Shown: positions 38,615 to 58,320 of the stretch, in pieces | Layout: the number at the start of each line of letters is the position of its first letter | Numbering within the stretch: the stretch's first letter is position 1 | Notes under the pieces: model-generated | Database searches by the model: none | What the model was told of the DNA's origin: nothing | Seen by the model: the letters and a program-made list of their open reading frames with translations, nothing else | Assembly (NCBI GenBank): GCA_902793435.1 | Contig: CADBDF010000002.1 | Coordinates: 71,623 to 135,622, forward strand | Source: an uncultured Pseudomonadota bacterium | Lineage (GTDB): Bacteria > Pseudomonadota > Alphaproteobacteria > Rs-D84 | Direction: 5' to 3' | DNA: 64,000 nucleotides | Program-made: the position numbers and the translations under genes

Positions 38615-39985
38615 TCAATCTGCACTTTCTATAATCTCGTACCAGTGCGGAACAATAACACCGTTTTCTTCGGTTTCGACCAGCAGGCACTTTTTGCCGG
38701 CGGGGCAGTTTTCGTCTGGACGGGTTTGTTTGGTTGCCTGCAAATCTGCAATCGCCTTGGTTTGATTTATTGTGTTTGTGACGACATCACGTATGGTCGC
38801 AATCGTGCTGTTTAAATCATTTACGACCGGACTAAAACGCGCACTGTTATACGCAGTCGTCGCAATTTTGATTGCGTTGGTGGCGATTGTTGTGACAACA
38901 CTGGCCCCCGATGACAACAGGGTTGTAATGGTCATACCAGTCACACCGCCAGTACGATTATTAACCGGTGCGGTGGTCATGGTTTGTCCCGCGACAGATT
39001 CCGTTGTTGCTGTTGCTAACGGATATACGATTATAACAGGTGTTCCCGCGTTGTATTGTGCAGCAAGCCAAGCCTTAAATGCTGTTACATCATTATTTGC
39101 CGTATCATACCTAATTTGTAGCCAAGCCGACTCAGTCGCACGATAAATAGAGTTATCTGTTGTTAAATTGCCTGTAAATGCAAAATGCGAACACGCCATA
39201 ACGTTGCTTTCAGACACAGGAACCAAGCCTTGAACCCTAAATCTATTATTGTTTAATCCCCAAATCTCCGTTCCATCAAGCACCTTGACCCCGACATTGC
39301 GGGTGATTGCGCCAGTGTTGATATTTTGTGTGTCACGATAATCGCCCACACCCAACAAAGTCGCCACCGTCGCCGTATGATTTGCACTGTCCGCAATCGT
39401 TTCAACCTCGCCATCGGTGTAGATTTGTCCGTATGGCATATACGGTGTTGCAGTTGAGCCGCGTTCTAATTGTAAAATATCGTCACATTTATAAACGTCA
39501 TTTACACCAACCGTAAGATATAAATACTTTGCTGATGTTGCTGTCGTAATTGTTATATCTACACCCTCCGTTCCACCACCATTTTGTGCGGTTTGTAGCA
39601 CTTTGTCACTACTATCTACAACAACCCAATACGGTGTGTTGGCTTTTATTTTTCCAAAAGTATAAGTCGTATTTGGCTGAACTTCAATACGATAAACATT
39701 ATATCTGTTATTTGGTGTGGTAGAAAACCCTGTTTGACCAACGGTTGCAGAACTTATATAATTCCTACTTTGGTATGGTGTTTGGTCTTTATCAAACAAA
39801 TTCTTACTTACTTTCAACACCCCATTATTGCTCACAATGTCCATTGGTGTATTTGGGGTTGGTGTGCCGTTTTGTGTGACCAAACCCGCCACAGTCACCG
39901 ATGATATTGGACCCGAATTTGTTTCTGCTGACCAACCAGAAATCGTTACCAACAGTCCCAGCAACCCAAACAACAGTTTTTTCAT
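38615..39985 (-). CDS. Exported tail-fibre-like mosaic protein A (paralog of 49383..51428)
   Basis: The signal peptide is MKKLLFGLLGLLVTISGWSA. LQLERGSTATPYMPYGQIYTDGE resembles phage fibre or receptor-binding module junctions. Three blocks are shared with gene B. Confidence 0.75.
   Translation of the reverse strand: MKKLLFGLLGLLVTISGWSAETNSGPISSVTVAGLVTQNGTPTPNTPMDIVSNNGVLKVSKNLFDKDQTPYQSRNYISSATVGQTGFSTTPNNRYNVYRIEVQPNTTYTFGKIKANTPYWVVVDSSDKVLQTAQNGGGTEGVDITITTATSAKYLYLTVGVNDVYKCDDILQLERGSTATPYMPYGQIYTDGEVETIADSANHTATVATLLGVGDYRDTQNINTGAITRNVGVKVLDGTEIWGLNNNRFRVQGLVPVSESNVMACSHFAFTGNLTTDNSIYRATESAWLQIRYDTANNDVTAFKAWLAAQYNAGTPVIIVYPLATATTESVAGQTMTTAPVNNRTGGVTGMTITTLLSSGASVVTTIATNAIKIATTAYNSARFSPVVNDLNSTIATIRDVVTNTINQTKAIADLQATKQTRPDENCPAGKKCLLVETEENGVIVPHWYEIIESAD
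38630..39004 (-). repeat. Inverted homology block 3 (C-terminal module), partner 51036-51410
   Basis: The nucleotide sequence is largely identical in reverse complement and encodes TESVAGQTMTTAPV.NRTGGVTGMTITTLLSSGASVVTTIA...CPAGKKCLLVETEENGVIVPHW. Confidence 0.8.
39266..39472 (-). repeat. Inverted homology block 2, partner 50538-50744
   Basis: Only scattered substitutions occur over ~200 nt. It encodes GSTATPY.PYGQIYTDGEVETIADSANHTA.VATLLG.GDYRDTQNINTGAITRNVGVKVLDGTE. Confidence 0.85.
39791..39922 (-). repeat. Inverted homology block 1, partner 50091-50222
   Basis: It encodes TNSG.ISSVTVAGLV.QNGTPTPNTP......NNGV.KVSKNLFD. Confidence 0.75.
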
Positions 39986-49203: not shown

Positions 49204-49291
49204 AAAAGCAACAACTTTTTTCAAAAAAATGAAAATTTACTTTTATCGTAAAATCAATAATTTATCAAAAATCGCAATTCGCCGTTTGGGT

Positions 49292-49312
49292 GTCTAAAAA
49301 AAACCTAGGTTT
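49292..49312. promoter_or_regulatory. Operator-like site, copy 2, abutting the -10 element of gene B
   Basis: This identical 21-mer lies 109 bp downstream of copy 1 and ends 4 nt before tgtataat. Confidence 0.4.
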
Positions 49313-49314
49313 TT

Positions 49315-49322
49315 TGTATAAT
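49315..49322 (+). promoter_or_regulatory. -10 promoter element (TGTATAAT)
   Basis: The sequence tgtataat lies ~60 nt upstream of ATG 49383. Confidence 0.4.
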
Positions 49323-49382
49323 CACAATATAGTAAAAAACCGCGGATTTCCGCCAGTTTATAAAATCGAGAGAGTTGCGAAA

Positions 49383-51428
49383 ATGTCTGCAAAATGTGCA
49401 TTTTTTGGTGTTTTACAAAAAATAGTGGTGATTTGCTGTGCCATATTTTTTGGATTTGCCAACGCATTTGCCGCAAATTTACCCGCCGGATATACGGAAT
49501 TGGAATATATCGAATCCACCGGCACACAGTACATTGATACGGGATATAAACCAAAAACAGGTGATAAAATCAGAATTGTTTATCAGTATAACTCGTTAAC
49601 TGGTGGTGGTAGTGGGTATGATGCTGTAGCGATATTTGGTTGTACGGATGAGGCTTCGGCTACGGATGCTGGCAATGGTGTTGCGCGAGTAATTCAATGG
49701 GAAAACGCTATCAACCGTATAGCGTGGGGGAGCGGAACAAATTCCGTAGTAGGCAATCTTACATACAATAGCGCAACAGGTGTATGGTATGACTTGGTAT
49801 GCGATAATGGCGTATTCACTATTAACGACACACAACTTGGCACGACAAGTGCAAATTCATTTTCTGCTAATTTTTCAATGTATTTGTTTGCAAGAAATAC
49901 AGGTGGAACAGCAGGACTTATAACAAAAGGTAAAATACAAATTGCGCAAATATGGGACAATGGCACTCTTGTTCGAAATATGGTCCCTGCGAAAAATTCG
50001 TCTGGTGTGGTTGGTATGTATGATACGGTTAACGATGTATTTTATCAAAATGCCGGCACCGGGACATTTACCGCGGGGCCGGTGGTGGTGACAAATTCTG
50101 GGGCGATATCGTCGGTGACTGTGGCGGGTTTGGTTGCACAAAACGGCACCCCAACACCAAACACACCTGTTGCAATCAACACAAACAATGGGGTGGTGAA
50201 GGTAAGTAAGAATTTGTTTGATGTTAATAATGTGGAAATACAAGCGAACACTTCTATTGCCACAGACGGTTCATTAGTAACTAATGCTTTAACAAAAGTT
50301 TGTATGACATACTTACCAGTTAAACCAAATACTACATATACAATAAGTGGTGATGTTTTAGGGGGCGATTCAGGTGCAGGCAATGCGGTATATTTTCGAC
50401 TGGTAGAATATACCTCATCTAAGCAATTCATTACCCGCGGTGCGGGAGTTCTCGGTTCATCTTATACATTCACAACTGGTGCAGACACATATTTTGTAAG
50501 ATTTCATTGTTTAACCAGAGCAGACCTAAACACATATCAACTCGAACAAGGTTCAACTGCAACACCTTATCATCCTTACGGTCAAATCTACACCGATGGC
50601 GAGGTTGAAACGATTGCGGACAGTGCGAATCATACGGCGAATGTGGCGACTTTGTTGGGTATTGGCGATTACCGTGACACACAAAATATCAACACTGGCG
50701 CAATCACCCGCAATGTTGGGGTAAAGGTGCTGGATGGAACGGAGAGTTTTGTTACAAATGTTATAACGGGCTGTTATGCTTTAAAGCCTTACATTGGTGC
50801 AGGGAATTTTGGTGATAAAACTGTGTATAGTTCTCATCTAAAAAGCACAGCAGCGATACCTGCTTTTGGTTCAAGGGATGGTTATGCGTTTATCGTAAAT
50901 GCTGGTGATGACTATACATTAGCTTTTGGAGGAACGGGCACATGGTCTTCTCTTTCTGCATTCAAACAATTCCTTGCCGAACAATATGCCGCAGGCACAC
51001 CTGTAATCGTTGTCTATCCACTTAAAACACCGACAACGGAATCTGTTGCGGGACAGACCATGACCACCGCCCCTGTCGATAATCGCACAGGCGGTGTGAC
51101 CGGTATGACCATTACAACCCTGTTGTCGTCGGGCGCCAGTGTTGTCACAACAATCGCCGCCAATGCAATCAAAATTGCCACAACTGCGTATAACACTGCG
51201 CGGTTTAGTCCGGTTGTAAATGATTTAAATACCACGATTGCGACCATACGCGATATCGTGACGAATACGATAAATCAAACCGCCGCAATCGCAAGTTTGC
51301 AAGCGGACAAGCAGACCCGCCCGGACGAACAATGCCCCGCCGGCAAAAAATGTTTATTGGTTGAAACCGAAGAAAACGGTGTTATTGTTCCGCATTGGTT
51401 CCCAATAATAGAAGTCCCCGAAGATTAA
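49383..51428 (+). CDS. Exported tail-fibre-like mosaic protein B (paralog of 38615..39985) with an extra N-terminal domain
   Basis: The RBS gagagag precedes ATG 49383, and the listed GTG 49290 lies inside the operator. The signal peptide ends FANAFA. The N-terminal domain is LPAGYTELEYIESTGTQYIDTG...GMYDTVNDVFYQNAGTGTFTAGP, followed by blocks 1-3 shared with gene A. Confidence 0.75.
   Translation: MSAKCAFFGVLQKIVVICCAIFFGFANAFAANLPAGYTELEYIESTGTQYIDTGYKPKTGDKIRIVYQYNSLTGGGSGYDAVAIFGCTDEASATDAGNGVARVIQWENAINRIAWGSGTNSVVGNLTYNSATGVWYDLVCDNGVFTINDTQLGTTSANSFSANFSMYLFARNTGGTAGLITKGKIQIAQIWDNGTLVRNMVPAKNSSGVVGMYDTVNDVFYQNAGTGTFTAGPVVVTNSGAISSVTVAGLVAQNGTPTPNTPVAINTNNGVVKVSKNLFDVNNVEIQANTSIATDGSLVTNALTKVCMTYLPVKPNTTYTISGDVLGGDSGAGNAVYFRLVEYTSSKQFITRGAGVLGSSYTFTTGADTYFVRFHCLTRADLNTYQLEQGSTATPYHPYGQIYTDGEVETIADSANHTANVATLLGIGDYRDTQNINTGAITRNVGVKVLDGTESFVTNVITGCYALKPYIGAGNFGDKTVYSSHLKSTAAIPAFGSRDGYAFIVNAGDDYTLAFGGTGTWSSLSAFKQFLAEQYAAGTPVIVVYPLKTPTTESVAGQTMTTAPVDNRTGGVTGMTITTLLSSGASVVTTIAANAIKIATTAYNTARFSPVVNDLNTTIATIRDIVTNTINQTAAIASLQADKQTRPDEQCPAGKKCLLVETEENGVIVPHWFPIIEVPED
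50091..50222 (+). repeat. Inverted homology block 1, partner 39791-39922
   Basis: See the partner entry. Confidence 0.75.
50538..50744 (+). repeat. Inverted homology block 2, partner 39266-39472
   Basis: See the partner entry. Confidence 0.85.
51036..51410 (+). repeat. Inverted homology block 3, partner 38630-39004
   Basis: See the partner entry. Confidence 0.8.
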
Positions 51429-56575: not shown

Positions 56576-56722
56576 TTAGGGGCGTACTTCTCGTATAGTA
56601 AAATGTTCTTGATTTTTACCAGATTCACGCTGCACTTGTTTTCGAAAAGCGTCTGCTTCTGTATAATATTGAAAAGTTTGCCAACCTACTTGTTGACCGT
56701 CCATAAATACAGCATAAGCCAT
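56576..56722 (-). CDS. Small ORF (48 aa) with a strong RBS; not in the supplied track
   Basis: The product is MAYAVFMDGQQVGWQTFQYYTEADAFRKQVQRESGKNQEHFTIREVRP. The RBS aaaggag lies 7 nt upstream of the ATG. Confidence 0.45.
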   Translation of the reverse strand: MAYAVFMDGQQVGWQTFQYYTEADAFRKQVQRESGKNQEHFTIREVRP

Positions 56723-57086: not shown

Positions 57087-57650
57087 ATGACAAATATACC
57101 GGATACAGAATATATTACGGTTAAACGCGATGTCAAAGGTCAGGGTGGTATTTTTGTTGGTGGAAAACCCACAACAACATATCGTGGTAAGGGAATATAT
57201 AATACAGATTTGGTGAAAAGGGTTTTCGTATGGATGCAGGAACACAATCCAAACATTGCTGAATTTCATATTGGTGCATTTGTGGCACTGGGGGAAGATG
57301 CAAAACTGGGCAATCCAGATGGGGCATTTGGTTCAAAAGCATGGTGTCGTGTGAAATATAAAAATGGTATTTTGGGTGCGTGGGTCTCACCCAACGCGTA
57401 CGGTTCGTCCGCCGATTGTGCGCGCGACTGTGCGTACTACTGCGCGTTCTACGTCCGCGCCGACTCCGCCTTTCGCGCGGCGGTGTTTGGTGCGACGATT
57501 GAAAAACAAAATGTTAATCCAATGGCAAAGTCAAAAAATCCGGAATTGAAAAAGTTAGAGCAGGTTGATTTTTCTAAATTGCCAAAATCCCCGATTGAAT
57601 TAAACGGATATAGAATTTTGGTTGAAAAAATTTCGACACGCACAAAATAA
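57087..57650 (+). CDS. Small protein paralog 1 carrying a hypervariable block (DGR-target-like)
   Basis: The start is taken at MTNIPDTEYITVKRD, which aligns with paralog 2 (MTEIPNDRYITVKRD). Shared motifs are WMQE.NP.I.EFHIGAF and GNP.G.FG..AWCRVK. Confidence 0.7.
   Translation: MTNIPDTEYITVKRDVKGQGGIFVGGKPTTTYRGKGIYNTDLVKRVFVWMQEHNPNIAEFHIGAFVALGEDAKLGNPDGAFGSKAWCRVKYKNGILGAWVSPNAYGSSADCARDCAYYCAFYVRADSAFRAAVFGATIEKQNVNPMAKSKNPELKKLEQVDFSKLPKSPIELNGYRILVEKISTRTK
57381..57494 (+). other. Variable-region-like block VR1 (A-poor, GC-rich)
   Basis: The block is 114 nt with 10 A residues. It is collinear with 58037-58150, with differences concentrated at codon positions 1-2. Confidence 0.6.
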
Positions 57651-57661
57651 AGTATGGATAA

Positions 57662-57690
57662 ATCCCGCCGGTATGGCGGGTGTTTTTTTA
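57662..57690 (+). terminator. Intrinsic terminator
   Basis: The sequence is cccgcc-ggtat-ggcggg followed by a T-run. Confidence 0.65.
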
Positions 57691-57742
57691 TTGATTGTTG
57701 TGTTATTTGTGTTAAATATATTTTTATATAAAAGGATAAAAA

Positions 57743-58285
57743 ATGACAGAAATTCCAAATGATAGATATATAACCGTAAAACGTGATGAAAAGGGCGAGA
57801 TTGTCGTGTTGGTTGGTGATAAACTTGCAAAAACATATCATGGTGAAAAAATATGGTATATAGAATATGTCGAAGAAATATTTGCATGGATGCAGGAACA
57901 AAATCCAGAGATAGAGGAATTTCATATTGGTGCATTTGCAACCCGTGGTAAATATGCCGAGGTTGGCAATCCAAGTGGAGAATTTGGACCAAATGCATGG
58001 TGTCGTGTAAAGAAAAAGGGTTCGTCCTGGGCCCCGTGGGTCTTCTACCGCACGTACGGTTCGGCTGTCTATTGTGCGGGCCGCTGTGCGTCCAACTGCG
58101 CGAACAGCGTCCGCGACAACGCGTCGTTTCGTTCGGCGGTGTTGGGTTCGGCGATTGATAAAGGTAATACGAAAAATGATAATGCGCAGTCTGTTTCAAA
58201 AAAGCCAAAAACACCCAAGAAACCATTGGTTATTAATTTACCGTGGCATATTATTACGATTGAAAAACGTAAAAGAACAATGTAA
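57743..58285 (+). CDS. Small protein paralog 2 carrying a hypervariable block (DGR-target-like)
   Basis: The RBS aaagga precedes the ATG. It is a paralog of 57087..57650. Confidence 0.7.
   Translation: MTEIPNDRYITVKRDEKGEIVVLVGDKLAKTYHGEKIWYIEYVEEIFAWMQEQNPEIEEFHIGAFATRGKYAEVGNPSGEFGPNAWCRVKKKGSSWAPWVFYRTYGSAVYCAGRCASNCANSVRDNASFRSAVLGSAIDKGNTKNDNAQSVSKKPKTPKKPLVINLPWHIITIEKRKRTM
58037..58150 (+). other. Variable-region-like block VR2 (A-poor, GC-rich)
   Basis: The block is 114 nt with 12 A residues. See VR1. Confidence 0.6.
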
Positions 58286-58287
58286 AA

Positions 58288-58320
58288 AAATCCCCGGACA
58301 AATGTTCGGGGATTTTTTTA
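58288..58320 (+). terminator. Intrinsic terminator
   Basis: The stem atccccg/cggggat is followed by a T-run. Confidence 0.65.

Follow-up and report, generated by a model that had tools for sequence, protein, structure and literature searches.

In the diversity-generating retroelement (DGR) of Bordetella phage BPP-1 (mtd-avd-TR-brt), an AAC-rich template repeat (TR) gives A-to-N changes at codon positions 1 and 2, transfer has a fixed GC-rich 3′ end and a variable 5′ end, and the reverse transcriptase (RT) carries the motif [I/L/V]GxxxSQ, a hallmark of DGR RTs. For the Treponema denticola TvpA-type and other non-phage elements, which are cellular, one cassette serves remote extra targets whose differences from the TR are confined to adenines (PMC5758913). 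Wu et al. (2018) counted 29 targets that lie over 100 kb away from their RT, seven of which belong to the Treponema element; they also point to evidence of continued homing when avd, TR and brt are expressed in trans from a plasmid (PMC5758913). Cyanobacterial DGRs also have remote targets, which are predicted to be intracellular and are mostly cytosolic (PMC7517822). Variable regions (VRs) are described as C-terminal, which has been ascribed to cis-elements that need non-coding space (PMC8144416; PMC7517822), and an internal VR with cis-elements in coding sequence is unusual according to Roux et al. (PMC8144416). Here we analyse a 64,000-nucleotide stretch (the window) of scaffold_152, a 164-kb contig of a cattle-rumen assembly (sample SAMEA5383953), in which two tandem paralogous genes each contain an internal 38-codon block. 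Both genes are likely remote (non-adjacent) DGR targets, with the block as their VR.

The system described here shares the listed features of BPP-1, but its accessory protein has no match to Avd (Pfam, NCBIfam), and the window targets lack a GC-rich inverted repeat and do not carry the VR at the C terminus. As with the Treponema-type elements, the element is cellular and the targets are remote and marked by differences at template adenines. Treponema-type remote targets, however, are paralogs of the cassette protein with C-terminal C-type lectin (CLec) VRs, whereas here target and cassette protein have only the templated block in common, the VR lies inside the protein and no CLec match was obtained. 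Cyanobacterial targets resemble ours in being remote and predicted intracellular, but all the VRs found there lie close to the 3′ end of multidomain regulatory genes that encode a CLec (PMC7517822); the proteins studied here are single-domain, of 180 aa, encoded at a conserved site next to recO (with rplI on the other side wherever both flanks are covered) and extended by a tail of 45–52 codons after the VR. The VRs of UVR1–6 (Wu et al. 2018) are likewise unassigned to the CLec or immunoglobulin-like (Ig) fold, a likeness to our CAxxCAxxCAxx VR that was drawn by description only. The mechanism is already known; what is new is an unannotated target family with atypical anatomy.

Two tandem genes carry GC-rich blocks with an adenine bias

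The genes and blocks are as follows.

57087–57650, + strand: paralog 1, an open reading frame (ORF) of 187 aa plus stop; family unannotated, no signal peptide
57743–58285, + strand: paralog 2 (the window copy is P0083), 180 aa plus stop; same family as paralog 1
57381–57494, + strand: VR1, in paralog 1; GC-rich, with variable codons of the form NNC/NNT and TR similarity from about 57378
58021–58146, + strand: VR2, in paralog 2; similar over its full span to the TR of L016 (RUG14746, a related genome described below), ending at GTGTTGGG

The two proteins share 44% identity, and neither matched Pfam, PHROG or NCBIfam. A first-pass annotation, made from the sequence alone, had aligned 57381–57494 with 58037–58150, and all of its counts were reproduced: 114 nt each, no indels and 30 mismatches, of which 15, 9 and 6 fall at codon positions 1, 2 and 3 (24/30 at positions 1–2). 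Between the blocks, 17 of the 38 codons are identical, one change is synonymous (CGC/CGT), and A occupies 4 of the 84 identical positions, with 10 and 12 A per block. GC content reaches 67% in block 1 and 63% in block 2, as against 43% over each whole gene and 39% over the window, and GC3 falls from 0.79 inside the blocks to 0.27 in the remaining gene sequence. The usual alanine codons are GCG/GCC inside the blocks, whereas GCA predominates outside. Where a degenerate amino acid is conserved, both genes have the same codon at 16 of 17 positions inside the block and at 40 of 64 outside (Fisher p=0.016), a pattern that exceeds chance. The mid-protein position also holds, with the blocks ending 52 (paralog 1) and 45 (paralog 2) codons before the stop.

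Using the L016 TR as reference, we found that its 25 adenines account for 17 of the VR1/VR2 differences, and its 89 other positions for 13 (p=6e-7). The adenine bias between the blocks is real, yet one template does not account for both. The earlier suggestion that both derive from a single template was rejected on the 13 non-adenine differences together with the unlike 3′ constant scaffolds (S.FRAAVFG in block 1, A.FRSAVLG in block 2).

The predicted template lies beside reverse transcriptases in related genomes

We predicted the template by placing AAC at the variable codons, which gives TGYGCG-AAYAAY three times in tandem (36 nt). The resulting pattern, TGYGCGAAYAAY ×3, was scanned against the GTDB genome collection (596 Gb) and IMG/VR. 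The GTDB collection returned 13 exact matches, where about 1e-7 would be expected by chance (our own estimate). All 13 are in metagenome-assembled genomes (MAGs) labelled Alphaproteobacteria, Proteobacteria, Rickettsiales or Candidatus Enterousia, from animal-associated samples including several of rumen or reticulum. These TRs contain 25–33 A per 114 nt, with AAC or AAT at every variable codon. A template with A at the variable sites, for which the first-pass annotation had proposed a search, is therefore present in 13 related genomes and not in the window. In the IMG/VR viral collection the pattern had zero matches, and a phage origin of the TR was rejected on that basis.

Where the loci reach far enough, the cassette order is a 320–375-aa target, the TR, an ORF of about 110 aa and an RT of about 340 aa. 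The target protein begins with a signal-like helix, and in loci that include the upstream flank its VR forms the very C terminus. An RT-like ORF (333–343 aa) follows the TR, or is cut by the locus end, in 11 of the 13 loci; L010 and L019 have none, and the L016 locus ends before the RT. Both RTs scanned passed the Pfam threshold for RVT_1, and all five examined contain IGNLTSQ and YCDD. The accessory ORF of about 110 aa between TR and RT was seen in six of the 13 loci and had no significant Pfam or NCBIfam match.

Cognate TR/VR pairs within the cassettes differ almost solely at adenines: 18 A-site mismatches and no other in L016, and 14 and one in L020. L062, from another animal sample, is identical to L016 over the TR (150/150) and 99.7% identical in the flanks, but its VR differs both from the L016 VR and from the shared TR, in each case at A sites only. 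The same TR with VRs that differ at A sites indicates that this DGR type is active in rumen populations, within the same rumen study as the window.

The accessory gene of L016 (102–507, − strand) is split in two frames, likely through a MAG assembly error, and that of L062 (3018–3344) is intact, at 108 aa. Clustering at 90% identity groups the cassette variable protein P0121 with a 915-aa protein, P0364 (JGI/ENA, 36-kb contig), which may be a longer fusion form of DGR target. Two large ORFs of the window itself, 38615–39985 (− strand) and 49290–51428 (+ strand), have C-terminal stretches of about 110–130 aa that are 47–55% identical to residues 33–148 of the L016 cassette protein. Neither has a VR. 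The module common to the three (IRIATTAYNSARFNPV...) has many paralogs per genome and is presumably a surface-protein anchor or stalk.

VR2 departs from a related template mostly at adenines and varies between close orthologues

VR2 begins 16 nt upstream of the block delimited in the first-pass annotation, and its 5′ boundary (−16, TTCGTCCYGGGCCCCG) is that of the cognate VR/TR pair of L016. Over 126 nt it has changed 13 of 25 template adenines and 3 of 101 other bases of the L016 TR (Fisher p=1e-8), the latter at −9, +32 and +93, where VR2 has T; thus, 81% of its mismatches to a TR from another lineage are at A sites.

Variation between close relatives in paralog-2-type genes is confined to the VR. 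Orthologue pairs are 94–98.5% identical outside it and about 55–80% identical inside, the mean VR identity being about 0.6 whatever the flank divergence, and the tail that follows is conserved (96–99% nucleotide identity). Comparing window paralog 2 with its syntenic counterparts in L021, L022 and L023, we obtained a non-synonymous divergence (dN) of 0.22–0.29 in the VR; synonymous divergence (dS) there is 0.03–0.06 with L021 and L023, and 0.46 with L022, whose VR has another scaffold type. That gene, L022_b, is a close paralog 2 orthologue (flanks 95–97% identical in nucleotides) with the scaffold V-L-H-D-A-D-F-R-R. The scaffold is L009-type rather than L016-type, so the block follows a template and not the gene's own history. 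The VR of L021_b keeps many unmutated AAC codons, with 9 of 25 adenines changed. VR2 is probably active at present.

Outside the VR, paralog 2 has dS values of 0.05–0.11 in the pairs with L021–L023, compared with 0.15–0.92 for rplI, rpsF, rpsR, recO and dsbA, and dN/dS of 0.35–0.55 compared with 0.02–0.22 for the same genes. The low dS may reflect either horizontal exchange between lineages or nucleotide-level constraint.

VR1 may be older or served by another template variant

Compared with the L016 TR from −16 to +110, VR1 has changed 16 of 25 adenines and 23 of 101 other bases, so that 41% of its mismatches are at A sites. Its similarity to the TR begins only about 3 nt before TGGGTC, and its 3′ scaffold (TCC GCC TTT CGC GCG GCG GTG TTT GGT) is unlike every TR found. 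The same scaffold, TCCGCCTTTCGCGCGGCGGTGTTTGGT, recurs in the L028 family member and in four family proteins; its recurrence there, and in no TR found, suggests another TR variant. VR1 is probably older or served by such a variant. Two of its relatives, P0001 and P0002, have the VR 5′ half in common (SPNAYG..D..YY) and differ in the 3′ half. This fits rare 3′-anchored partial replacement; alternatively, VR1 could be near-inactive.

Variability across the family follows template adenines

A search of a large protein collection gave 131 homologues of the small proteins, and the few with a named source all come from gut or rumen MAGs of Alphaproteobacteria or Proteobacteria. The 113-member alignment has the consensus W-V-F-xx-T-xx-S-A-A-x-C-A-xx-C-A-xx-C-A-xx-V-R-xx-A-x-F-R-S-A-V, in which the x positions have entropies of about 2.4–3.6 bits and a spectrum of Y/N/D/S/G/R/F/H. 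Reading these 113 homologues against the L016 TR codons, we found that 96–100% of residues at AAC/AAT sites belong to the 15-residue set accessible by A-to-N changes, while 89% of family residues at the ACG codon are T/A/S/P and 79% at the AGT codon are S/G/R/C. The variable sites are the first two positions of AAC-type codons, and the changes create no stop codons. In 37 distinct VR DNAs, columns that align with a TR adenine have an entropy of 1.65 and the other columns one of 0.72 (Mann–Whitney p=7e-12). The proposal of adenine-directed DGR variable regions in remote targets is thus supported by the predicted template beside DGR-type RTs and by variation at TR adenines in VR2 and across the family.

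GC content is 0.61–0.66 in VRs that depart from the TR at few non-adenine sites, whereas those with 23–46 such mismatches have 0.41–0.55 and encode a similar motif in AT-rich codons. Clearly decayed copies, with GC down to 0.41–0.52, occur in other genomes, for example L045, L052, L053 and L050. The loss of GC as non-adenine mismatches rise argues that the GC-rich scaffold is kept by templating and not by protein-level selection. Both window blocks stand at the templated end of this series (GC 0.63 and 0.66).

A second variable patch lies upstream in each gene.

57192–57224, + strand: codons 36–46 of paralog 1; entropy 2.4–3.2 bits at residues 36, 38–42, 45 and 46
57848–57880, + strand: codons 36–46 of paralog 2, for which near-identical orthologues were compared

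Among the paralog 2 orthologues, codon 39 is TAT, AAT or CTT, and codon 42 is TAT, TGT, GTT or AGT. We considered codons 36–46 as a second VR and rejected them: the patch is AT-rich, varies at all three codon positions and lacks an invariant nucleotide scaffold. Co-evolution of this patch with the VR, as a surface of the protein, is conceivable.

Internal VRs have candidate homing signals within coding sequence

The 3′ ends of the two VRs contain candidate elements resembling the initiation of mutagenic homing (IMH) site.

57464–57502, + strand: 3′ end of VR1; A-free and GC-rich, then ATTGA (57498–57502); candidate IMH-like element within coding sequence
58120–58160, + strand: 3′ end of VR2; A-free GC-rich GCGTCGTTTCGTTCGGCGGTGTTGGG, then TTCGGCG and ATTGATA (58154–58160), read as ...G-S-A-I-D-K; candidate IMH-like element

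Across the targets, the candidate element consists of a 27-nt A-free GC-rich end plus the ATTGATAAA motif. [AT]TGATA directly follows the repeat in the cassette VRs of L016, L062, L020 and L011 and in most small-family genes; it overlaps the stop codon in the former and reads I/N/V-D-K in the latter. GGCTCC, by comparison, is found within about 10–25 nt 3′ of the repeat in 9 of 11 TRs listed from L008–L020 and L062 (L019 has GGCTTC, and L015 lacks it) and in no VR. [AT]TGATA and GGCTCC are a candidate discriminator of target and template, and GGCTCC may be the start of a TR-RNA element used in priming.

The block is also what connects two otherwise unlike proteins. Aligning the small family with the cassette proteins in hhalign gave 47 columns at 99% probability, corresponding to the templated block alone. 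An AlphaFold model of the small protein (predicted local distance difference test score (pLDDT) 83) has a beta-beta-alpha-beta-beta order followed by helices 108–125 and 127–134, which hold the CAxx repeats. With a period of four residues, Cys and Ala would be expected to face the core in this model, and the xx pairs the solvent. Foldseek comparison of the model with PDB and BFVD gave no match at E≤0.001, and hidden Markov model (HMM) searches of solved structures gave no sequence match. Pfam searches returned no match to FGE-sulfatase, DUF1566 or any other family, and none to CLec. The first-pass annotation had raised a C-type-lectin-like or other ligand-binding surface for the block; the predicted structure is helical in the VR and has no CLec match. 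The model of the cassette protein (pLDDT 52) was too poor for a fold search.

Evidence against remote targeting

Several results weigh against the view that the window genes are DGR targets. We searched 68.5 kb of the 164-kb contig, comprising the 64-kb window and 4.5 kb beyond. Blastn of both blocks against the window found no third copy and no TR, and tblastn with the cassette RT and accessory proteins was empty, in agreement with the first-pass annotation that the window has neither RT nor TR. The 4.5 kb beyond likewise contained no RT, accessory gene or TR, and among the best 120 of 2231 RT homologues none fell on a contig of the window contig's length (164 kb). Tblastn around family genes elsewhere found no RT or accessory gene in L001, L021–L023 or 34 JGI metagenome loci; about 315 kb around family genes in total contained no RT, accessory gene or TR. 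The closest TR belongs to another lineage, sampled in other animals: relatives of the cassette protein led to the RUG14746 lineage and to samples SAMEA5384028, SAMEA5383854 and SAMEA5383884, whereas the window is from SAMEA5383953. On our preferred reading the window genome would carry such a cassette.

The remaining points concern the targets themselves. VR1 has 23 non-adenine mismatches to the L016 TR where VR2 has 3, and 13 of the 30 differences between VR1 and VR2 are at non-adenine sites. The VR is stable in the nearest relatives of paralog 1: P0002 and P0362 differ by four changes in other parts of the gene but not in the VR. The VRs are internal (52- and 45-codon tails), so any cis-elements would fall within coding sequence. 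No GC-rich hairpin follows the window VRs (−5.9 and −6.3 kcal/mol, z about +0.9 compared with shuffled sequence), while those downstream of the cassette VRs reach −25 and −27 kcal/mol; only 34% of DGRs are described as having such a GC-rich inverted repeat (PMC5758913).

Mechanism and alternative explanations

In the mechanism that we propose, a cassette elsewhere in the genome would comprise a secreted variable protein, the TR, an accessory protein of about 110 aa and the RT. The TR, which encodes WVF-NN-T-N-S-SAA-N-CA-NN-CA-NN-CA-NN-VR-DN-ASFRSAV, would be transcribed, the RT would make cDNA with random bases opposite template adenines, and this cDNA would replace the homologous block in the target gene. 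Replacement would begin at an invariant 3′ point, formed by the A-free GC-rich stretch and ATTGATA, and extend 5′ over a variable distance. The first two positions of the AAC codons would be randomised while the nucleotides of the Cys-Ala scaffold stay unchanged, and in the structural model the randomised residues would line one face of a helix. We infer that the cDNA homes in trans into the small genes and that the block does not arrive there by recombination.

An alternative is that the DGR of an ancestor wrote the blocks and that the cassette has since been lost, leaving orphan relics that are frozen and drift as coding DNA. Such a history would fit the empty 68.5 kb, the many non-adenine differences between VR1 and every TR found, and the unchanged VRs in the closest relatives of paralog 1, and decayed copies do exist elsewhere (L045, L052, L053 and L050). 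Unlike those copies, however, the window blocks keep GC-rich TR codons (GC3 0.79) in a genome of 39% GC. VR2 has only 2–3 non-adenine mismatches to a TR of another lineage, and its close orthologues carry completely different variable residues at low synonymous divergence. We therefore regard this explanation as unlikely.

Remote targeting must also be set against a second-hand origin, in which the DGR would write only its own cassette protein and the small genes would gain the block by gene conversion with VR or TR DNA. Against this account, the small genes keep the target-side [AT]TGATA and never have the TR-side GGCTCC, and in copies with a TR-like scaffold the TR-similar span ends at the same 3′ point. 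Recombination does occur at the locus, as the varying gene order and chimaeras between genomes (L021_b) imply; identical GC-rich flanking stretches could support it, the block is the sole segment common with the cassette proteins, and no hairpin follows it in the window genes. L021_b, with 9 of 25 adenines changed, nonetheless resembles a fresh, lightly mutated copy of the TR, and trans-acting DGRs with remote targets are documented (PMC5758913). Gene conversion alone thus seems improbable to us.

That no retroelement is involved, and that the pattern reflects protein-level selection on a Cys-Ala repeat, diversifying selection on exposed residues and local codon bias, is scarcely credible: codons 36–46 do vary by ordinary substitutions, as conventional diversifying selection on the protein would have it, but the scaffold codons are identical at synonymous sites, the differences are adenine-specific, the predicted template exists beside RTs and decayed members encode a similar motif with AT-rich codons.

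Implications of an internal, remote variable region

Remote targeting, taken as the preferred explanation, bears on how DGR targets are sought. Large surveys look for VRs that adjoin the RT and state that remote targets are missed (PMC8144416). The family described here has at least 131 unannotated members that are recognisable from the VR signature alone, and it was tied to its element through template prediction. If an internal VR homed without a downstream hairpin, DGR cis-elements need not be intergenic, and the rule of C-terminal VRs would be relaxed. A short helical VR of CAxx repeats that works in two unrelated protein contexts would be of interest for DGR-based directed-evolution tools. 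The results also point to an intracellular hypervariable protein in poorly known uncultured gut Alphaproteobacteria (Candidatus Enterousia and relatives).

A broader picture can be offered only tentatively. A cellular DGR might diversify in trans an intracellular single-domain protein at a conserved core-genome position by recO, through an internal, helical, non-CLec VR whose homing signals lie in coding sequence and which has no cruciform, so that the same templated block sits on two unrelated frameworks. The near-identity of the recipient gene across species, with dS 3–10-fold below that of adjacent ribosomal and repair genes, would then imply constraint from the homing machinery or repeated horizontal replacement. 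The product might serve as an intracellular variable receptor that senses, for instance, proteins of phages or mobile elements.

Gene context and further features of the family

The gene pair is flanked by rpsF-rpsR-rplI and recO-dsbA on the same contig (Pfam labels). The order rplI-[family gene(s)]-recO also occurs in L021, L023 and L024; in L022 a DUF559 gene separates the family genes from recO downstream, and the contig stops before rplI. We assigned the start of paralog 1 to ATG 57087 and not to the upstream ATG 57075, as M1 is kept in 110 of 112 homologues; cluster look-ups returned solely the alternative-start version of this protein. Each gene is followed by a hairpin.

57664–57690, + strand: for paralog 1, an intrinsic terminator made up of CCCGCCGGTATGGCGGG and then a T run, from a terminator scan
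58292–58319, + strand: for paralog 2, a hairpin that resembles a terminator, CCCCGGAC-AAAT-GTTCGGGG and then seven T, from direct reading of the sequence and not listed by the scan

Gene arrangement varies among family members. In L021 (6187–7380) the order is swapped relative to window 57087–58285, and the second gene, L021_b, is a chimaera with a paralog-2-like N terminus and VR and a paralog-1-like tail. One ORF of L007 (1826–2734; P0020, 302 aa) contains two VR-bearing units, and L031 has three VR blocks in a row on one contig (at 1828, 2401 and 2947), of which the block at 2401 is decayed. A single-copy member, P0119 (L002 10001–10474; bovine metagenome, 320-kb contig), lies about 4 kb from a phage-type integrase gene, with an OLD-family nuclease, DUF2130 and an SLFN-like helicase 5–10 kb away on the opposite side. 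This different context indicates that the family is not always located between rplI and recO. In the window, the AT-rich spacer between rplI and paralog 1 contains a 48-aa ORF (56576–56722, − strand) that is a called gene in the public assembly.

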